From a virus: a stretch of DNA of 64,000 nt. Position numbers and translations under genes: made by a program. This document shows, one piece after another, positions 28,301-39,598 of the stretch. Location of the stretch: the IMG/VR virus record IMGVR_UViG_3300025013_000002, positions 18,562 to 82,561 of that record. One strand, written 5' to 3'. How positions within the stretch are numbered: position 1 is the stretch's first letter; the number at the start of each line of letters is the position of its first letter. Below the pieces are notes generated by a model. That model had not been told where the DNA came from. It was given only the letters and a program-made list of their open reading frames with translations, and did no database searches.

Positions 28301-31300
28301 TGCCTGATATTCCTCCTCGTAGCGGTTGTAGACCAAGGCGATGTCGTAATCCCGTTCATCCGAAACGATTCCTTGGCTGTGATCTCCAGCGTGGTTGACT
28401 AGGCGCCAAGGACCTGGGGAAAATTTATTTTTCATTTTGAACTCCTTTTGCTTTGGCTACGACCCGGCGAGCCTCTTCCCAGGATGCTGTGTCAGGTAAG
28501 CCCCAAATCGTGATTAGATCCTCCAGCGCTGCGAGAAGTTCTGGAGCTGCTGAGATCAAGGCACAATTTGCCTCGTCGATTTCCGTTACCTGCTCACTGG
28601 TGAGGTGGGGAAGTACGTCTTCAGGATCGAGTTGAATTTGGGCTCCAAGAATCTTGTAGAATCCGTCCCTGTAGCCCTCCACGTTCCAGGGCATAGGTGT
28701 AAATTTATTGGTGCTCATATCTTCCTCCCAGCCGCTATCAAAATAAAAGCGGCGAATGCTCCGGTTAATGTTAGAAGCTGCAGGGCTCCGATGGTTTGGT
28801 CGAAGAGGGTCATTTTTGGACCTCCAATTCCTTCCTGATCCAAGCCGCGAGGTCATCTGGTCTGCAACCAGCGGAAGGCCAATTTTTGACCATCCGGTCG
28901 AACTCGCGGATCTTCATTTCTTGGTTTTGCTGGATTACTTCGCTCGCTTCCAGACCCATCTCCCTATAAATGTGACTGGCGTTGTCGCCAGTGTTCTTGG
29001 CACTGACGGATTTGTCTGTGGCCAAATCGGTCCAGGTAAAGGCCTAATAGCGGTTGCAGTAGGTGTCCGCTTTGGAATTGTAGATGGTGATTTGGGCTTT
29101 GATTTGTCGGATCATTTTAGGCCTCCTCTTGTTAGTCCCCGCTCGGAAAGTTCTTGCAAACCTGGATGTGCCTGGTCTTAATCTGTTCGTCTGACATGAC
29201 TGCTCTTGGTCCGCGACGGTAAATCTGCAGCGCCAAGTTAAGTGCAGCGCCCCACTGAGATCCAGATAAGCCTAGAGCCTCAATCCGTTTGTTCGCAAAT
29301 CCTGCAGCTTTAATTTCCTTCTGGTTCCTCTGCCAAGTCTCTTGGTCCTCCCAGGCTGAATAGTCGTAGCCCCTCTCAAGCAAATGCCTAAGAATCTCAG
29401 CGGTTGTAATTTGGATAGCTTGCTCGTACCCAGGACCAAACCCTCCCATCGAAATTGACCGGACTGATTTTCCTTTGTCCCATCTGTTCAACCAGTCAGC
29501 AGCATCAGTGCCGTAGATCTCGATCTGGCCGTGCTCTTTGTCCTCTGCTTCGGTGCGATAGAAAACTTTCTTTCCGTCAAGGAACACTCCGCGCACCACA
29601 AAGCCTATCCCACGACCGTAGAATCTTATTTCCATACCTTCCTCTGGAATCACAGGGGAGGAACTAGGGATGAAGAAACCCCACCCGTCATGCTTGGTAA
29701 TCTCCCATCCATTACCTACGGCGTTAACTTTTTTGATTGTGGCTACTTCGAACTGCAAGTCATTTTCCGGGAACATAATTTTTCTCCTTTAAATGTGAAA
29801 TCTCACTTTTCTGGGAGACTCCCGAAGGAGCCTCCCTCCTTCATAACCTACTCCCCGAAGTAGAAGCAGCGGCAGTATTCAAGCACGATCTCTTCCTCCT
29901 CGGAAGTCAATTCAAGAGGTTCCCAAGGAGTGAACCAGTCCTGGTAGAAGATCTCGGCGGACTCGGGCTGGTTCCACTGACCGAGTTCCCCCTCGATCTT
30001 AACCGCAGGTCCTCCGGTGCAGAGTAGGATCTGGAACTCTTCGGCGGAGTGATCCTCCGAGCCGGGGCAATACCAACCCGAGCGGACCTGAACCGAGAGG
30101 GGATCTTCGTTGATACGCTGGCGAGCGTCGTCGGCGTCTTTGCACTCGCCTGCTTCGGCTTCGAGTTCGTCGAGTTCCTCCTGATTTTCTTCTTCCCAAT
30201 CCGAGAGTGCTTTTTCCGCCTCGTCGTTAGCCTCCTTCAATTCGAGGTAGCTGGCAGCCCTGAGGTTGCAGTTGTCCGCGTAATCCTTGAGATCTCTTGC
30301 AGCGGTTGTGAGTGTGTCGCGGAGATCCTTCTTCTCCTCCCTCAACTCCTCCAGCCGATCCCAATCCAAATTCAACGCCGCCACCATTTCCTTAATGGAT
30401 TCAAACTGCGCTCGGGCCTGGTCTTTCGCTCTTTCGTTGTCGTTGCTCATTTTGTTGCCTCCTTGTTTAGGAAATGTGAAATCTCACTTTCCTATTGTTA
30501 GAGAAAAATAATGGATATACTCAAAGATTTTACTTGACACGGGGCCAGCACTCGTGGTATAATGCGGCTACTTTTCCGAAAGGAAAATAATATATAGTAC
30601 TTATATAGCCACGATTTAAGCCTCCCTGATTCCCTCCTCTTCCTGCTCTAGCAGACACTCCGGACAAATGCAACCTGGATTTTTGGTTGTTTGGTGGAAA
30701 TGCCTGTCGCATAGGACGCATTCGGTGGTCATTGGTGGGCCTCCTTATCCCTGATAAATTTTCCCGTCGTCTCCGACGTACAAGTCCACTTCCCCGAATC
30801 GCTTAGAAGAAGATGTCAGCCGCTCGCCAGCATCTTTAGGCCAATCCCCATCCCAGAATCCACAGCCGTGTCCGTTCCGGGTGAGCCAGAAGTCGTGTCC
30901 TGCCTTGGTGAAATCCAGGCCGATGTCCTCCCAATTCTCGTTGATGAAGCGGGCGCAGTCCTCGTCCATTTTTTGAAACGTCTCTGGCGCGAGGTCTGAG
31001 ATTCCGTAGTTGTAGTCGAGCGGAATGTCCTGGTCGTCTGTGGAAGACCACAGCGTGGCCTCAATATAAGCCGTTAGAAATTCGTTGATCGAGGGGATCT
31101 CCTCCGCATTAGGGAAGATCTCTTTGAATTTCATCCTAGCCTCATTCCAATCAGCAGCCCTCAAAAATGCCGCCTGCTCCTCGTCGTCTCCATCTCCCCA
31201 GGCTACGAAGAGAGGTTCACCACAGCCCCAGTAAGCACCGCCTGGGTCGTACCCCTCGTGGAGCGGGACCTGCTCGATGTTGATCCGAGTGACGGAATCG

Positions 31301-34300
31301 GCTTCCTGGAGCGAGTCAGGTCGGCCCATTTGGGCTCCAGCAGTTGAATATGCTTTCGTGTAGTTGAATTTCATTTCATCCTCCGAAATGTTGTATAGCT
31401 TTGTCCGTTCGCATAGCAGCGATGCGAGACAGCGCCGGTAATGTCATCCCCGCACTTAGGGCAGCAGGCTTTATAGGGAGGCTTCGGTACCTCAACGAAG
31501 GAATTTTCGTGGGCGTACCCTGTGTACTCCCGCCCACAGTAGGAGCAACTTAGTTCTACTGTGACCCCACTGCCCAGGATCACTTTGTCCTCCCGAAGAG
31601 GCATTCCGCATTTGCAGGTCATGGATTTAGTCCTCCCCTAGTATGGCGAATCGAGTCCTGCTCCCTGCCAAGTAGGTCCCACAGCAGTCGCAGTCACTCG
31701 TAGAGAATTCGTCTTCTCCGTGCTCTCTTTCACTGAGTTCCGCGCTGGAGCAATGAGGGCAACCAGGGACTTCTTCGGGCTCGCTGCAGTCGGAGCACTC
31801 CAGCCCTTCCTCTACTTGCCAAGTGCATCCTTCGCAGTCCGGGTTTTTCACCTTGATCAAGTTGCTCTCCAGCAGGTACTCTCCGCAGTCGTAGCAGGTG
31901 AACTCCTTTTCGTCGGTGCAGTCTAAGACTAGGTGAGGGCCTAGATCCGCCAGTCCTCTGTCGATAGCTTCGATCTTGGCGTCAAGCTCCTTCCCATCCA
32001 GGTAATAACCCAAGCCAGAGTAATCGGCGTTGACTGCTACCATCGTGCAGTCGGCGCAGAGCCAGATGTCGCGGTGAAGAACTTTCATTTCATCCTCCAA
32101 AAAAAATGTGAGATTTCACTTAGTAGCCAAGCGTCTCTTCCTCGTCGCCGCCCAAGCACGCTTCTTCGCGCTCGTCCTCTTCCTCCTGGTATTCGCGCTC
32201 CTTCTCGGCAGCATCTTCTGCCAACGAATCGGCAGCGTAGGCCGCGCTAACTTCGTCGTCGTAGATGTGGTCCGTCTCGACGGAAGTAGCCATGCCTTCA
32301 CCCATCGACCAGCCCACGATAAAACCTCTGTCGTGGTTAAGCCGGATCACGATTCCTCGGATTTTATCGCTGTCGCCGTACTCGTCGGTGTACCAGCCGG
32401 TGTGCCCAATCGAGGCGTCCGCCACCTCATCGCACCATTTCCAGCGGTGGATAGGATTCGAGAAGTCGCTGTCGAGGTAGCAGGAGAACCCATCGGCGTT
32501 AGGCGTCGGCGCCGAGTAATAACCTCCGGTGTGCTTGTATCGCTCCTGGCGCTGCTTCTTGGTTCCCTTCGGTAACTCACTCAGGTATTTAGGGAAATTG
32601 AATCCGGCGAAGGTGAATTCCGTTTCAAGCTTGCGTTGGCGTCCTTTTAACATGGGGTGCCTCCTTAAATGTGAATATTCACTTCTGAATTGATTAGCGC
32701 CAAACCTGGAGGTCAAATTTTGAATCCTCCGGGAACCTCTGCTTCATTTTTTGAACTGCCTCTTCCTCCGAAGCGGCGTCGATGTAATACCCTTGTCTTG
32801 CTGAAGGATCTTTGTGTCCGGGGCATCCTGGCTCGTAAAGATCGGGACGGGTTAGGCGGAATTGAGGCATGGTTTAGTCCTCCTTCTGGGTGCTCAGTTT
32901 GTCAAGTGCTGCACCCCACTTTGTGAGCCTGTCCTCTTCAACTTTGAGGGATGCCCGCTGCCTTTCGATGCTCTCAGCAGCACTTTTGATTTCTGCCTGA
33001 GCCTCAACCAGAGCGGATTCCAGGTCAGGGTGGTACATATCAACTCCACAGCGAGCAACCCTACCGTCGCCATATCGAATCTTGAGGGAGGGTAACCTGC
33101 ATCCCGGCAAAATGCCCTCTTCAAGTACGGTTATCGTTTCAATCGAGATGGTACCATTGTCGTTAAAATGGATGTCATAGCGTTTCATCTTGTCCTCCCT
33201 CGTAAAATGTGATATTTCACTTTTTGCTTCGTTCACTCAACTCATCGACCGCCAGAATATTGCTGAAGTAATCCCCTTCGTTCCCTGCGGAGGAATACTT
33301 CTCGTTCACGAAATCATCCTCCTCAAATCCCTGCTCCAGAGCGTCCTTCCTGAGTTCCTCGATATAATCCGGATCTGCGAAGTAGCCTTTGTACCCCTTG
33401 TCCTTGCAGTAGTCGGCTATGGCGTCGTGGCAGGCGCCTAGATCCGAGTTCCCGTGAATCAAAAATCCTGCCGAGACATAGCAGCCGGTGTCGAGCCAGA
33501 TGATGTAGGTATTGGGCCAGAAGTGCTTGTCTGAAGGATTCACGTAGTCGATGGATTTGCGGCACTCCCGGAGCCACTTGGCGAATTCAGTTCGTTCCAT
33601 TTCCTACCTCCTAAAAAATGTGAGATTTCACTTTTTACTACCTAAACATCCAGCTACACATCACCAAGCCGCAGACAGCAACCAAACAAACCAAGATCCT
33701 CCCTACGGCGGCTTCAGTTTCCCTTTTCTGTTCGAATTGGGCTCTCTGTTTGAGGACGGTGGTGGAGACGTAGTTCACGAAACCACCTCCACTCTCTCCA
33801 TCCTGAGATCGACCCAAGCCAATCCATCGTTAAACTGCACCAGGACCATATCCGCCAATTCTTCAAGGCAGTGACCAATTCCGGTTCCGATTACGTAAAC
33901 TTTTTGATTTTTCATTTTGTGGCTCCTTTTCCCGTAAAATGTGAGAATTCACTTTTCCATCAAGATTCACTTCTGAATACCTTAAGCCACCAAAATCCTC
34001 ACCACGTAAGGATGGCCGTAGTTCATGAACCAGTCCCAGGTCGTTTTGATCCTTCTTGTCTTGCCTGATTTAGTTCTGACTTCGCAGATGATCGTCATGG
34101 CTTAGTCCTCCTTTTCTGGCGCCGTATTGCGCGCATCGCAGATTTCCCATTCATTCAAGCTTTCGTCCACCACATGGACCATCTCAGCGACAGCCACCCT
34201 TTTCCCGCAGGAGTCGCAGGCTCTCATCGTGGGGTCCTCTAAATACATCCCTTCCCCACAACAAGGGCAGCGCTCGCCGTTGTCTTCGATTTCCCCTCGC

Positions 34301-36341
34301 TTAGACTTTTGCTCACAATCGGGGCACTTTATTTCCTCGCCTCTAGCCTCCCGTTCGATTTCATGCTCGATGTACTCTTCTGCCAGGGTCTCGGAGCGAA
34401 ATGCGGAAACGTGGCCATACCTACCAAGCAACTCGTTCCACCTCTCGACAGCTACCCAGCCAATCCCGGTTTGCCCTGCAGGCACAATTCTGTAAAATGG
34501 GATTTTGATGAATTTCATTTTGTGGCTCCTTTCGTAAAATGTGAAGTTTCACTTTTTACCTTTCAGCCATTCCCTAATCCGAATCATCCCCTCGCTGCTA
34601 ATCTGCCAGACCGGAACTCCACCATCCAGATAAAGGCCCCTCTCTTGGTCGCCTTCCATTAAAGTGCTTAGGTAGTACCTGGACACGAACTGACCGAAGT
34701 CCGTATGATCGTAACGGCAGTCATAGAATTCGACCGTCGGATCATCTTGGTCGTGCTCCAGGCAGAAATTGAGTCCGTATTTATCACCTTTTTGTACGAT
34801 CCGGACGAGCCAGATCATTCCTTGGTCGTTGAATATTTTGATCATTTTTGAGCCCTCCTACCGCACCATTTTCGATGAAGAAGTTGTTCGGGTACTTCAG
34901 CTCCAGGCAGTAGACGATGGTTTCCAGTGGGAATCCTCTGTTGACCAGTTGCTGCACGTAGGCTTGCCAAGGCAGTTTCATTTTTAACCTCCTTCTGACC
35001 GCAGGTTTCCTCAGGTTGATTGCTTCGCAGGAGAACATGAGGAAACCTGCGGTCCAACTATCAAGCTACTCAGCCCACATTACCAGATCCGAGAAAAGAC
35101 CCTCGGCCTCTGGGAGTTCCCACAGCCCGTCTTTGTTCCTGGAGGCTATTATCGTGTCTCCGTCAGGTCCGCTCCTCAGTTCTCCGTAGGTTATTTGCAT
35201 GTAATCCGAGAAGGGGCCTAAGTCCTCACTCATGGTCGAGGTAGCAACATTTTCACCGCGTACATAGTAATTCATTTTATTCTCCTTTTGGTTGATGGTG
35301 GTTGAACTCGGTCGATTCAAATAAATGTGAAATTTCACTTTTACGAAAACCTCAGTAAGATAGCCGTCGCCCAAACAACTCCGAGCCAAACTATAGGTGC
35401 CATCATATCGTCCCTCCGTGCTTTCGGATAATCTCCCGGACAACTTCCAGAGGGACGTATGAATAAACGGGAGAACCTTCGTAGGTATGATAAGGAGCCA
35501 AAAGTTCTTCTGGTTTGTTAGGGAACCCAACCTCGACATCCGAGTACAAAGCGAGCTTGAAGAAGTCCATTGTCTTAGGACAACAAGCGTGACGATCGCT
35601 TGCCTGGACACTCATCATAAACCCGTCTTTGCACACGATCTGAGGGAATAAAACTCCCTGGGTCCTTGTGGGAAGTTTGATTTCAATTTTGGTGGACATT
35701 TGGATCTCCTTTGTAATTACGGGCTATTTCCGAAATGGGCGGATAGGGATGAGGGGAAAGAACTTTATAAAACCTTTGTCTTGGCGTTTATAGCGGGTTT
35801 GGATCTTTTCGTCAAGCATTTTAATTCACATGTGTATTTAAATTGGAATGTGAAACCTCACTTTTATGGTTTATTTGACGGGCGAATCAGGTAAACTACG
35901 CAAACTTTGCATAGCTGGTGTAAAACCTTATTAAATACGCAGGTTTAGTCAGGTTTCTAGCGGAGCTTGGATATTGAGTTATGCCTGCGGTGGATTAGGG
36001 AGGATGCAGGATCAGTCAATTTTCCAGCGAAGCTTTAATCATGAGGAAACCTGCGGTTGAATTGGGAGCTTCGCAGGTTTCCTCAATTTTAATGCGAAGC
36101 TGGTTGGCTTGAGGCGGACTGCGAGGTATTAAAGCACTTCTTTCTCCGTGACGAAGTATTCGCGCTCGAAACCTTCGGGAGCGTTGATCTGCCATTCCTG
36201 GCCTTTGGCGTGCGCCTTTTCGCTGGAGGAAAAGAGGAAGGTTTCAACCCAGCGATCATCCGAGTAGGGCTCAAGGGTGTCTTCAATCTGCGCGAGTTCA
36301 TAGACGATCATTTTAATTTCTCCTTTTTCTCGTTTCCCCAA
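25381..36341 (-). CDS. Array of roughly 25 small, often acidic, early or host-takeover type genes (e.g. 25381-25686, 25705-26043, 29132-29776, 29848-30450, 30745-31374, 31627-32100, 32120-32653, 33217-33600, 34102-34518, 34549-34845, 35403-35699)
   Basis: Each gene has a strong RBS. Widespread phage/plasmid motifs include LLCTGGPA, AGHDFWLTRNGHGCGFWD, GYDPGGAYWG and GQFVSRYYLSTL. Confidence 0.7.
26045..26359 (-). CDS. 'HTPGPW...ANARLIAAAPELL' family protein, copy 1
   Basis: KHTKGPWNV...EANCRLISQAPALLDAL. Confidence 0.7.
   Translation of the reverse strand: MKIESKHTKGPWNVTGYLDGYYKILGAQIELDPEDEECTLTLEERVEIDEANCRLISQAPALLDALKDIHDRLSGIKHFGPMSTNTIEDLLVIAEQAVKKAEEA
28151..28435 (-). CDS. 'HTPGPW...ANARLIAAAPELL' family protein, copy 2
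   Basis: KFSPGPWRL...ANADLMAAAPELLEAL. Confidence 0.7.
   Translation of the reverse strand: MKNKFSPGPWRLVNHAGDHSQGIVSDERDYDIALVYNRYEEEYQANADLMAAAPELLEALENLVRWQDTGNNPPLASDWRKAREAIRKAKEGSK
28425..28718 (-). CDS. 'HTPGPW...ANARLIAAAPELL' family protein, copy 3
   Basis: KFTPMPWNV...EANCALISAAPELLAAL; ATG at 28718. Confidence 0.7.
   Translation of the reverse strand: MSTNKFTPMPWNVEGYRDGFYKILGAQIQLDPEDVLPHLTSEQVTEIDEANCALISAAPELLAALEDLITIWGLPDTASWEEARRVVAKAKGVQNEK
34997..35054. repeat. Hairpin element family C, copy with perfect 17-bp arms
   Basis: GACCGCAGGTTTCCTCA-N8-GCTTCGC-N9-TGAGGAAACCTGCGGTC. Confidence 0.9.
35939..36122. repeat. Three degenerate family C units in tandem, period 67 bp
   Basis: Units start at 35939, 36006 and 36073; each is GCAGG-N5-TCA-N8-GCG(G/A)AGC-N8/9-TGA...CTGC. 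Confidence 0.8.
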
Positions 36342-36415
36342 GTTCCAACGCGTTTCCCTTCCTAGATCAAAAAGGATATACGCGCCGGTCCTGGGGGTTT
36401 TTAGGTAGTTCGTTT

Positions 36416-36445
36416 AGGCGCTATGTGAAATTTCACATAGCGCCT
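36416..36445. repeat. Perfect 30-bp palindrome centred on a family B site
   Basis: AGGCGCTATGTGAAATTTCACATAGCGCCT. Confidence 0.95.
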
Positions 36446-36617
36446 CTCAAGGTCGAGCTACGATCCGCGCCCTGGACCTGCAGGGCACCTCTTTTGCTCC
36501 ATCTAAAGACTGCGAACATCCGTTTGCAGAGTTTAGAAAATGTGAAATATCACTTTTATTTGTTCCATTATGTAACACATCCTGGATGAAATGTGAATTT
36601 TCATATTTTCTAAATAG

Positions 36618-36653
36618 AGCGGGACCGGCTCGATGCTTTGGGCCGGTCCCGCT
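36618..36653. terminator. GC-rich 12-bp stem-loop, probable terminator
   Basis: AGCGGGACCGGC-N12-GCCGGTCCCGCT. Confidence 0.65.
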
Positions 36654-37110
36654 TTGTTGCCTCAAAAATGTGAACTTCACATTTTTAATGAGCTTTTCTT
36701 TAACCAGTGAACCGATTGCCTCATGCCTCGCCTTTCTTATCAGCGACACAACTATTAGCAGGACGGTCAGTATCTGGCGTTTAAACGGCCCTTCTGTTTA
36801 GATGTATGGTAGCACCTCCCCCGCTTCTTATCTCTCGACTATAAGGGGATATTCCGCCTTTCCAATCTGTTACCTTGTACCGTCAGGCAGACTCCCATAG
36901 TTGGGGCCTCTGTCTGCAGTCATTTGGATTGATACAAGTCAAGGATCGAACGCGCTAAATCTTGTGCTGATCCTGTCGGCAATAGGTGACAGGTTCTAAG
37001 GTTTCGTGCCCTATAGCGGGACACTACTTTCTCCGTTTGGCATTTTGCTAGAATGCCTGTACAGGTGTCAAGCTGTACACGTCATGCCTCAATAGTCTCA
37101 ATGAGCGGGG
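36618..37110 (-). ncRNA. Candidate large structured non-coding RNA
   Basis: No credible ORF; dense consecutive helices; G-U wobbles form only on the minus strand; potential pseudoknot. Confidence 0.45.
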
Positions 37111-37118
37111 AAATGATA

Positions 37119-37179
37119 CAAGGGTCTTGCTCTGTAGCTTCTAGATCCTACACCTAGAAGCTACAGAGCAAGACCCTTG
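37119..37179. repeat. Perfect 26-bp inverted repeat with 9-nt loop
   Basis: CAAGGGTCTTGCTCTGTAGCTTCTAG atcctacac CTAGAAGCTACAGAGCAAGACCCTTG. Confidence 0.95.
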
Positions 37180-37204
37180 CCGGTTAGGGCAAGGGCCTTT
37201 GGCG

Positions 37205-37639
37205 CTAGGCAGAGGCACCGGCCTTTTTAGCCTCTTTCATGGCTTTTTCCAGAGCTGCGAAAAGCCCCTCATTCCCTGCACATTTCGTCATGACGGCCTT
37301 AACGTAGCTGTCAACGTTGAACTCTTTGGTGCAGTTGGAGTTATCACCGCTGTTCCTGATGAAGTCATACAGCCTCTTGAGGAAGCGCCCACACTCGCCT
37401 TTGTCCTGAATAGCCTCGGTGTATTTCTCGGGAACGTCGCGGCCAGCCTGCAGCATGGCGTTGTGTACCGTGTGAACGTAGCCGGTTGCCTTTTCCGGCA
37501 CGCCGAAGTGCGTTTCGATGGTGGAGATGGTATCCATCATGCGGGTCTGTTGCGAGGCGTAGGCTTTGCTCTCTGCGTCAACGGTTTTCAGAATGGCGGT
37601 TCTAGCTTTGATACCCATGGACTCGATTTGCTTTTTCAT
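37205..37639 (-). CDS. Hypothetical protein, first gene of the leftward arm
   Basis: ATG 37639 with AAGGGG RBS, downstream of a sigma70-like promoter. Confidence 0.7.
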   Translation of the reverse strand: MKKQIESMGIKARTAILKTVDAESKAYASQQTRMMDTISTIETHFGVPEKATGYVHTVHNAMLQAGRDVPEKYTEAIQDKGECGRFLKRLYDFIRNSGDNSNCTKEFNVDSYVKAVMTKCAGNEGLFAALEKAMKEAKKAGASA

Positions 37640-37723
37640 GATATACCCCTTTGGCCTATGGCCGGTTGTGGTGCAAGGCACCGTGTATGCTTCCCAGGTG
37701 AGCCGTTCGTTCATGTTGATACA

Positions 37724-37752
37724 GTTATAACAGCTACCTTGTTTCAAGTCAA
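37724..37752 (-). promoter_or_regulatory. Leftward sigma70-like promoter
   Basis: TTGACT-17-TATAAC with AT-rich upstream region. Confidence 0.7.
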
Positions 37753-37831
37753 CACTATTTTTCACATTTATTTTAAAATAATTATTCTTGTGTAAAACAA
37801 GGTACTTAGGCTGTTAATTCATATTAGGTAG

Positions 37832-37939
37832 CTCCCCTCGGTCGATCCCTACGACCTCCCCTCGGTCGATCCCTACGACCTCCCCTCGGTCGATCCCTAC
37901 GACCTCCCCTCGGTCGATCCCTACGACCTCCCCTCGGTC
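37832..37939. repeat. Tandem repeat, 4.5 x 24 bp
   Basis: CTCCCCTCGGTCGATCCCTACGAC at 37832, 37856, 37880 and 37904, plus a 12-bp partial copy. Confidence 0.97.
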
Positions 37940-38034
37940 ACTGGGGGCGGGGTGAAAGTTTTAATGAGAGCCAGGCTCCCTTACCCATTCACACACACGC
38001 TACGAGTTAAAATTCAGATGTACATACTTTTATC

Positions 38035-38063
38035 TTGACACGTAGCGAGTAAAGTGTTAAGGT
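38035..38063 (+). promoter_or_regulatory. Rightward sigma70-like promoter
   Basis: TTGACA-17-TAAGGT upstream of the AAGGAG RBS of 38094. Confidence 0.65.
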
Positions 38064-38093
38064 TCAATACAGGCAAAACAAAGGAGAAATAAA

Positions 38094-38420
38094 ATGGAAC
38101 GAGTAAAAATTGGAGATAAATTTCACGCTTGGACAGTGATAGCAGGCCCCATCATGAAGGGCAAAGGTCTCAAGTATTGGACATGCCAATGTGCTTGTGG
38201 GACTCAGAAGGAGATCCAGCAGTACTCCCTACTGAATGACCGCACCCATAGTTGTGGGTGCCAGAAGGTTTTCTCCGAGGAAACTAGAAAGCTCCTGTCC
38301 GAACTCAGGAAACAGCGGCCCGCCCCAAGAGCTAAGGGGTTCACCCAGACTGAAGAGACGAGGGCGAAGATAAGCCAGGGTGCCAAACAAAGGTGGGAGG
38401 AGAGGAAGGCGCAGCCATGA
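38094..38420 (+). CDS. DNA-binding protein built from homing-endonuclease-associated modules (Cys motif plus two NUMOD3 motifs), no nuclease domain seen
   Basis: YWTCQCACG...SCGC; FSEETRKLLSE; TEETRAKISQ. Confidence 0.7.
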   Translation: MERVKIGDKFHAWTVIAGPIMKGKGLKYWTCQCACGTQKEIQQYSLLNDRTHSCGCQKVFSEETRKLLSELRKQRPAPRAKGFTQTEETRAKISQGAKQRWEERKAQP

Positions 38421-38594: not shown

Positions 38595-38975
38595 ATGAAG
38601 ACGATCATACGGAATCACCCAGCAACTTCCCAGGAAGCTATCCAGTTCACCCAGCACCTCCTCCAGTCCTTCCCCATCACCACCAGAAGGCAGATCACCA
38701 TCGAGTTCAGGTCTACTAACTCTATTGGGAGGGGGAATTGGGGCATGGCGCACGATTACAAATTCAACAACACGCTCTTTCTGGAACTGGCCCTTGGGAC
38801 TTCCAAGGAACGCAGAGATCTCCAGGATCTCCTCCACACAATTGCCCACGAGTACTGCCACGCGCTCCAATACGACCAGGAGAAGCCTGCATCCTGCACT
38901 GAGGCGGACCTCTTCGGAGACAAAGAGGTGCCCAAGTTTCTGGAGGAGAACCTGCGGATGAAAAAGGCTGCTTAA
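38595..38975 (+). CDS. HExxH zinc metallopeptidase-like protein (ImmA/IrrE/SprT-like)
   Basis: LLHTIAHEYCHALQ...E..AD. Confidence 0.7.
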   Translation: MKTIIRNHPATSQEAIQFTQHLLQSFPITTRRQITIEFRSTNSIGRGNWGMAHDYKFNNTLFLELALGTSKERRDLQDLLHTIAHEYCHALQYDQEKPASCTEADLFGDKEVPKFLEENLRMKKAA

Positions 38976-39419: not shown

Positions 39420-39483
39420 GCGAACCACAGGTTTCCTCAGGTGGATCGCTTCGCGGGAGAACATGAGGAAACCTGTGGTTCGC
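39420..39483. repeat. Family C hairpin element, copy with perfect 20-bp arms
   Basis: GCGAACCACAGGTTTCCTCA-N8-GCTTCGC-N9-TGAGGAAACCTGTGGTTCGC. Confidence 0.9.
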
Positions 39484-39598
39484 CTAAGCCGTGCTCTTGT
39501 GGTCCCAGTAACGTTAAGCAAAATTTACAAAACCTACCTGAAATGTAAATTTTATTTTACGATAGCCACTTTAAAATTCACGCAGCGAAGCGAAGTGC

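Follow-up and report, generated by a model that had tools for sequence, protein, structure and literature searches.

What does a phage keep in a stretch of almost 500 nucleotides (nt) directly behind its first early gene, if no protein is encoded there? The question is raised by positions 36618-37110 of a 64,000-nt stretch of DNA from an uncultivated phage (positions 18,562 to 82,561 of the IMG/VR record IMGVR_UViG_3300025013_000002), which is referred to below as the window and whose numbering is used throughout. The source is an 82.5-kb virus record with an estimated completeness of 73%, and the gene-free stretch is located between gene 1 of the early arm and an open reading frame (ORF) of 70 amino acids at 36129-36341. 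An earlier note, made from the letters alone, had proposed that it holds a highly structured non-coding RNA, belonging either to a class of large phage RNAs such as GOLLD and ROOL or to a new one. The analysis presented here confirms the observation and supports its interpretation as a structured phage RNA. Compensatory changes among homologues keep a secondary structure and no coding potential is present, which is the general test for a structured non-coding RNA.

Large and elaborately folded RNAs without a known function have been described in a handful of cases, several of them phage-borne, and each of them has opened work on structure and mechanism. The best reading of the present sequences is a new family of such phage RNAs, with the limit that it is new with respect to Rfam and that no literature search was made for the same RNA under another name. 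The full reading, to which we give roughly even credence, is that of a maintained multi-domain RNA of ~500 nt that belongs to no described family, is made from the minus strand together with gene 1 and is released to act alone.

Compensatory changes among eight homologues

The homologue set, collected via gene 1, consists of the window and seven distinct loci from the metagenomes of two IMG data sets; two of these loci are also present in IMG/VR. The stretch is found downstream of gene 1 in all seven related loci, with an identity of 72-87%. Covariation was read from an alignment of the eight sequences (A3), with pairing partners slid by 1-3 columns and 500 shuffles serving as controls. RNAalifold proposed 149 pairs on this alignment, 45 of them with changes on both sides, and the removal of one spurious outer helix before a recount left 145 pairs in 21 helices. 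These pairs are formed in 95.2% of 1155 cells, compared with 36-47% when the partners are slid, and 46 of them are changed on both sides, compared with 2-7. None of the 500 shuffles matched the observed pairing, the covariation score or the number of both-side pairs. Moreover, the 46 covarying pairs split the eight sequences into 36 different partitions, so the covariation does not stem from one inherited event or haplotype.

The covarying helices include the nested long-range helices 8 and 9, with spans of ~90 and ~65 nt, respectively. Within the core of the element, unpaired columns are more often invariant (84 out of 127) than paired columns (67 out of 148), which is the pattern of a compact functional fold. 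For an RNA of such size this support is unusually clean, given that it comes from eight sequences, and it illustrates that strain-level variation in metagenomes can suffice to establish a fold of 500 nt. The homologue and covariation check proposed in the earlier note has thus given a strong signal.

Coding potential and folding energy

The possibility of a protein-coding stretch was ruled out, since all six frames of all eight homologues contain 6-16 stops in ~600 nt and the alignment indels (1, 2, 7 and 19 nt) include lengths that are not multiples of three. The stretch had been described as ORF-free, and indeed no ORF is conserved in it. With regard to folding energy, the minus strand of the whole stretch has a z-score of -3.83 against dinucleotide shuffles, and its plus strand one of -5.72. 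The core alone folds at -90.7 kcal/mol on the minus strand (z -2.45, with 3 out of 200 shuffles folding as well) and at -107.1 kcal/mol on the plus strand (z -4.95), and among the eight homologues the minus-strand z-scores span -1.1 to -4.6 and those of the plus strand -1.9 to -5.2. The element therefore folds better than its shuffles; this folding-energy signal is real but modest, and the covariation is the decisive evidence.

Architecture of the RNA

The minus-strand RNA presents a four-part fold: a core of ~300 nt closed by a stem of 8 base pairs (bp), a hairpin with a GNRA cap, a long hairpin on the 3' side and stable hairpins at the ends (Table 1).

Table 1. Features of the element and of the DNA upstream of it, listed 5' to 3' on the minus strand (aa, amino acids)
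Feature	Position	Strand	Remarks
Sigma-70-like early promoter (predicted)	37724-37752	minus	TTGACT, 17 nt, TATAAC; precedes both gene 1 and the RNA
Gene 1 of the early arm, 144 aa	37205-37639	minus	directly upstream of the RNA in every locus
Hairpin A, 8 bp	37174-37195	minus	starts 10 nt past the gene 1 stop codon; alignment columns 22-29 with 36-43
Hairpin B, 26 perfect pairs, 9-nt loop	37119-37179 (arms 37119-37144/37154-37179)	minus	more than two helical turns
Core domain	36818-37111	minus	encloses arm 4/5, hairpins 6 and 7, helices 8-12, hairpin 13 and hairpin 14
Stem P1, 8 bp	37104-37111 with 36818-36825	minus	closes the core; begins 7 nt after hairpin B
Hairpin 5	37039-37057	minus	4 of 6 pairs changed on both sides
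Hairpin 7	36969-36996	minus	loop end YGCC can pair with GGCR at 37085-37088
Conserved 18-nt segment	36951-36968	minus	unpaired in the model; contains invariant run AGCGCG (36951-36956)
Long arm, nested helices 8-12		minus	in the core; helices 8 and 9 covary
Hairpin 13		minus	in the core; invariant
Hairpin 14, 3-bp stem and GNRA tetraloop	36830-36839	minus	all 3 stem pairs changed on both sides, 100% of cells paired
Hairpin 15	36800-36817	minus	right after P1; 95% paired, with both-side changes in 2 of its 5 pairs
3' domain, one long irregular hairpin	36703-36778	minus	set off from hairpin 15 by a linker; purine-rich apical loop is conserved
Perfect palindrome hairpin	36665-36685	minus	last copy of the early-arm motif family; helix 20, 8 of 9 pairs never vary
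GC-rich hairpin, 13 bp	36618-36653 (arms 36618-36631/36640-36653)	minus	helix 21, 99% paired, 8 both-side pairs

The two hairpins that had been noticed as bounding the stretch are both real. The long one, hairpin B, comprises 27 pairs on the alignment (helix 1), of which 98.1% of cells are paired and 7 pairs are changed on both sides; it is a candidate site for the processing of double-stranded RNA or a candidate 3' stabiliser of the gene 1 message. The GC stem at the other end, with its covarying pairs, is probably a 3' end or a terminator-like element. In front of hairpin B, six bases belong both to the 3' arm of hairpin A and to the base of hairpin B, which makes the two pairings mutually exclusive; RNAalifold assigned the shared bases to hairpin B. 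This contest for six bases (CAAGGG on the minus strand) involves a three-segment arrangement that is kept in all eight sequences, and it looks like an alternative-pairing switch.

The closing stem P1 has four invariant pairs, one pair with a one-sided change and three with single unpaired cells. Inside it, four of the five adjacent helices originally listed (37039-44/37052-57, 37006-11/37019-24, 36972-77/36988-93 and 36887-92/36912-17; helices 5, 6, 7 and 11) were recovered by RNAalifold, each with 2-4 both-side pairs. The fifth, 37058-64/37073-79, does exist and is confined to an additional 19-nt hairpin insertion in arm 4 that the window shares with locus L007 and that is absent from the other six sequences. 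The loop of hairpin 5, CUAGCA (37046-37051), is invariant and contains the self-complementary tetranucleotide CUAG. Hairpin 6 is flanked by the invariant runs AAGUA and GAAAC, which may resemble a loop E or sarcin-ricin arrangement.

With regard to pseudoknots, the end of loop 7 and the segment 37085-37088 form four pairs in which 32 out of 32 cells are paired, and an A-U pair is replaced by G-C in L006, L008 and L012. These observations suggest a possible pseudoknot, with the caveat that the change may be a single event. A pairing of loop 7 with the 3' domain was considered too and was mismatched in two of the eight sequences, the segment 37085-37088 being preferred. The possible pseudoknot at loop 7 is better supported than the one proposed in the earlier note, which was built on two helices taken to be crossing. 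The first of these, 36874-81/36931-38, is real (helix 9, with both-side changes in six of its eight pairs), but 36887-92/36912-17 is nested inside it and not crossed by it. The second, 36861-65/36924-28, is paired in 92.5% of cells, with a C-to-U change opposite G in four sequences, but has no both-side change. Furthermore, it competes with the outer part of helix 8, which has one both-side change, and alignment column 361 covaries with helix 8 and not with the second helix. A pseudoknot at this second helix is therefore possible and not shown.

In the long arm, one homologue departs from the shared model. The core of L006 (640-927, corresponding to 36815-37114 of the window) has helices 9-12 replaced by an unrelated arm that is itself fully paired. 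The tetraloop of hairpin 14 reads GAGA in four of the eight sequences, GUGA in two and GGGA in two, so that N alone varies. As for the 3' domain, all eight sequences fold on their own to one shared architecture. The pairs of this domain were counted on alignment A6, since MAFFT had misaligned the two most divergent sequences there; A6 is a covariance-model alignment and leans towards its model R2, a bias to be kept in mind with its 22 pairs, of which 93.9% are paired, compared with 29-43% when slid, and six are changed on both sides, compared with 0-2.

Several candidate promoters inside or next to the element were also considered. One at 37042-37071 lies in the region of the 19-nt insertion and is absent from six of the eight sequences; another at 36838-36865 scores 9 out of 12, which is chance level as judged by shuffles. 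A promoter of its own between hairpin B and P1 was rejected because 7 nt alone separate them.

Conservation and distribution

The core is about as conserved as the adjoining coding DNA, with 73-93% identity in both cases. From gene 1 through the core to the 3' domain, the identity between strains changes in a mosaic fashion: L006 is 93% identical in the gene and 74% in the core, and L007 is 84% identical in the gene and 93% in the core. Such mosaic identity points to recombination among strains.

Searches beyond the homologue set led back to the same lineage. No match to the stretch was obtained by blastn against phage GenBank records, and scans of IMG/VR with a 22-nt exact stretch and two degenerate patterns retrieved the same lineage only; a further 14 IMG/VR pattern matches are due to chance, an nhmmer profile having matched them at the seeded motif only. 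Two pattern scans of 185,579 prokaryote genomes gave none and three matches, respectively, and all three fail the nhmmer profile outside the seeded motif; two of these chance matches fall inside a gene of the PEP-utilising-enzyme type. A covariance model of the core (R1, 282 positions and 76 pairs) gave the eight homologues 285-330 bits, while no other site in the 255,581 bases searched, which included the rest of this phage's contig, exceeded 16 bits. Neither BLAST nor the models R1 and R2 detected a second copy of the element in the phage contig. The 15 sequencing runs listed for the stretch come from groundwater and sediment metagenomes. In four DNA runs the contigs over the stretch are short fragments, whose gaps in cover carry no meaning, and the compensatory variant of hairpin 7 is seen again in one of them.

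Relation to known structured RNAs

The element was compared with the 4227 families of Rfam 15, using gathering scores over the whole window, expectation values (E) up to 10 in 36300-38100 and E up to 1 in five homologous loci. No family reached the gathering score in the window, and none matched the core at the loose thresholds in either of the other two search spaces. The sub-threshold matches are scattered, resemble microRNA precursors and lie on long hairpins including hairpin B, not on the core. ARAGORN found no transfer RNA (tRNA) or transfer-messenger RNA (tmRNA) in the 64-kb window, and neither ARAGORN nor Rfam gave a match to tRNA, tmRNA, RNase P RNA, group I or II introns, known ribozymes or riboswitches, in agreement with the absence of tRNA, tmRNA and RNase P signatures in the earlier note. 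The lack of an Rfam match means that the element is not GOLLD, ROOL or another curated family. Taken with the covariation and the folding, it supports the second of the two options raised at the outset, namely a new class.

The closest likeness is to GOLLD and ROOL, which are also phage-borne, several hundred nucleotides long and rich in covarying helices, with highly conserved loops and junctions, and which, like the element, have no associated protein or assigned function. However, the element does not match their Rfam models even at E up to 10, and with ~500 nt it is shorter than many GOLLD members, which exceed 800 nt according to the portion of a recent study drawn on here (10.1101/2024.12.08.627333). 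In the same portion of that study, the usual site of GOLLD is beside tRNA genes in phages or prophages (10.1101/2024.12.08.627333). The element, by contrast, is not near a tRNA gene, as there is none in the 64-kb window and the sole tRNA of the contig is ~45 kb away. Unlike GOLLD and ROOL, it sits in an early operon right behind the first gene. GOLLD, ROOL and OLE are described there as making RNA-RNA contacts through self-complementary loops (10.1101/2024.12.08.627333), and the invariant self-complementary runs of the element, CUAG in loop 5 and GCGC in a junction, recall such loop-loop bridges, a likeness that may serve as a lead only. Regarding smaller structures, a survey of IMG/VR, in the part of it used here, deals with candidates of 29-151 nt that needed at least three IMG/VR regions (PMC10690425), and its supplements were not compared with the single hairpins of the element.

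The same phage carries another structured RNA, adjacent to a tRNA-Thr gene (L033, G000:C1:10129-10624). No similarity between it and the element was detected by BLAST, R1 or R2, and the two differ in context, one lying by a tRNA gene and the other in the early operon. The 5' arm of hairpin 6 (37015-37024) is a perfect 10-nt complement to the 3' end of the tRNA-adjacent RNA, where ~0.2 such matches would be expected by chance according to our own estimate; a relation of the two RNAs through this complementarity was judged to be at about chance level.

Expression and possible function

Judging from its position, the element is probably co-transcribed with gene 1 and then released as a stable RNA. 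It would be made early in infection, as the tail of a transcript that starts at the promoter upstream of gene 1 and runs through that gene. Hairpin B, which is long enough for a double-strand-specific RNase of the RNase III type, would set the 5' end, and the palindrome and the GC-rich hairpin may protect or define the 3' end. The compact RNA thus released could act alone as a protein- or RNA-binding scaffold in the take-over of the host, and the invariant runs CUAG and GCGC may let it pair with its own copies.

A bolder version of this proposal, put forward tentatively, is that the element founds a new class of phage RNA that is large, ornate and self-contained and would be unrelated to GOLLD, ROOL, OLE or any Rfam family. 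Made within minutes of the start of infection, it would work as a machine, whether as a ribozyme, as a scaffold that sequesters proteins or as a multimer that assembles itself through the invariant self-complementary runs of its loop and junction. If so, one phage would carry two unrelated large RNAs, one early and one by a tRNA gene, which would hint that RNAs of this kind are a common feature of phages that has been under-sampled. The position of the element, behind the first early gene and its recognisable promoter, is well defined and differs from those of the other large RNAs. It can for this reason be directly cloned and tested for processing, read-through control, partners and self-assembly.

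Several observations weigh against a separate minus-strand RNA that is released to act alone. The long-range closing stem P1 and helix 3 show no both-side changes, which leaves the global fold on less firm ground than the local hairpins. All eight sequences belong to one phage lineage from groundwater or sediment samples, and there is no RNA run among the 15 listed runs with the stretch; the ends, the processing and the stability of the RNA are hence all inferred. The GC-rich hairpin has no canonical U tract and does not appear in the terminator scan of either strand. Gene 1 has no recognisable family among PHROGs, Pfam, PADLOC and PDB sequences, so nothing ties the RNA to a partner. Finally, energy gives no preference for the minus strand, the mean single-sequence z-score being slightly better on the plus strand, and on the pairs common to both strand models the excess of G-U over A-C cells is 19 to 10.

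The main rival, which we consider unlikely, is a cis-acting regulatory RNA, whose nascent fold would modify the polymerase or sense a signal and so govern read-through of the GC-rich hairpin and of the intergenic hairpins beyond it. The order of elements is compatible with this idea, with a promoter, the first gene, the RNA, strong hairpins and then ~12 kb of co-directional genes with palindromes between them; no other strong minus-strand promoter is listed by the scan at 25-37 kb, and a promoter-like site past the RNA is not kept in a relative. As a folded RNA that lies close to the promoter of a long operon and upstream of hairpin-rich DNA, the element can be likened to the Bacillus eps-associated RNA and to the put RNA of phage HK022. 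In the sections of the source relied on here, put is an RNA of ~70 nt that forms two stem-loops and follows directly on an early promoter, and putR, ~270 nt downstream of the promoter start site, acts on terminators kilobases away (PMC9378689). However, the element has about seven times that length, contains a multi-way junction and ~21 helices in ~500 nt, and begins ~600 nt downstream of the predicted start, so that neither its size nor its position is that of put. No terminators in need of suppression are evident: the downstream hairpins are not canonical terminators, and terminator-like sites number 18, compared with 21.5 expected. No antitermination family of Rfam was matched. Furthermore, the long 5' hairpin precedes the RNA, which therefore cannot aid the polymerase past that hairpin.

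Strand of the functional transcript

It is improbable that the functional transcript is the plus strand, as an antisense-oriented RNA gene between the two bounding hairpins. The energies lean that way, as the core of the window has the lower energy and z-score on the plus strand and the mean z-score of the eight homologues is slightly lower there; the RNAalifold energies are close, with -86.4 for the minus-strand model and -82.1 for the plus-strand model, which have 62 pairs in common. However, the GNRA tetraloop, with N alone varying, exists on the minus strand only, the extra 12-bp plus-strand helix of the window is dropped from the consensus fold, and no plus-strand promoter is listed by the scan at 36600-36750.

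The earlier note had pointed to G-U pairs that exist on the minus strand alone, and these are present, with 82 G-U cells against 13 A-C cells in the core under the minus-strand model; the test of strand that they provide is nonetheless weaker than had been assumed. At internal positions, in a strand-neutral extension of the helices, the counts are 42 and 12. Invariant G-U pairs are found inside helices 3 and 8, and the G-U pairs needed in helices 3, 8 and 14 turn into A-C on the plus strand. The promoter and all the genes neighbouring the RNA are also on the minus strand. The minus strand is thus favoured by the GNRA loop, the excess of G-U over A-C, the G-U pairs in helices 3 and 8 and the orientation of promoter and genes.

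One RNA or separate hairpins

It is very improbable that the stretch holds side-by-side independent hairpins (terminators, protein-binding palindromes or mobile hairpin repeats) instead of one RNA. The phage is rich in repeated palindromes and hairpin families, arms have been swapped between strains, as in the 19-nt insertion and the replaced arm of L006, and the long-range pairings P1 and helix 3 lack compensatory support. However, the 82.5-kb genome has no further copy of any core hairpin, the nested long-range helices 8 and 9 covary, and the linkers are the most conserved parts, which would not be required of independent hairpins.

The least probable alternative is a replication-linked RNA or single-stranded DNA, that is, a folded primer transcript or a strand-specific origin element acting with the tandem 24-bp repeats ~700 bp upstream at the divergence of the arms: the 4.5 repeat copies (37832-37951) and the minimum of the cumulative GC skew at ~38 kb are near, and covariation alone cannot separate RNA from a single DNA strand, but a covarying stem capped by a GNRA tetraloop and a conservation that is higher in junctions than in stems are signs of a compact RNA, a whole gene and a promoter lie between the element and the repeats, and nothing marks a point of transition from RNA to DNA.

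Genomic setting

The window has a minus-strand gene arm that reaches to ~37.6 kb and a plus-strand arm that begins at 38.1 kb, and the cumulative GC skew turns near 38 kb. The tandem copies of the 24-bp unit are found near this turn, between the divergent early promoter and the plus-strand arm. Both hexamers of the predicted early promoter are retained in three of the six aligned relatives (L006, L008 and L010). In L012 the -35 hexamer is retained and the -10 hexamer has one base changed, and L007 and L009 have another segment upstream. The promoter was missed by the promoter scan because the rule of the scan demands T at position 6 of the second hexamer.

The start of gene 1 at MKKQ was set by alignment with four homologues. 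Searches with its protein gave no PHROGs, Pfam or PADLOC match and none of note among PDB sequences, and in the Atlas it matched viral hypothetical clusters only, at 0.85-0.86. The protein has a few relatives; the distant homologues P0006 and P0007 were also found, and a viral scan with both of them gave only contigs already known.

The palindrome at the 3' end of the RNA has relatives elsewhere in the early arm. An oriented palindrome family, TGTGA-N4-TCAC(T/A) with A/T-rich flanks, is distributed over 29794-36686, with 14 matches at up to 2 mismatches compared with 2.98 expected, and most of its copies directly precede the ribosome-binding site of one early gene after another. The copy at the RNA's 3' end, a hairpin, is an N3 variant of this motif, and two copies are present there in L010 and L012. 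Between the RNA and the next gene, a perfect 28-nt palindrome (36417-36444) is centred on a perfect copy of the N4 motif. Additionally, a family of hairpins of ~50-63 nt is common to both arms (34998-35060, 36020-36103 and 39420-39486), and relatives have extra copies of it downstream of the RNA.

A consensus promoter scoring 12 out of 12, with an extended -10 TG, lies on the plus strand at 30534-30563 and is directed against the early genes. With regard to the plus-strand arm, its first gene (38094-38420) encodes a short HNH-endonuclease-like protein (PHROG 374, E 6e-13), and its second gene (38595-38975) has a weak SprT-like match under the Pfam cut-off.

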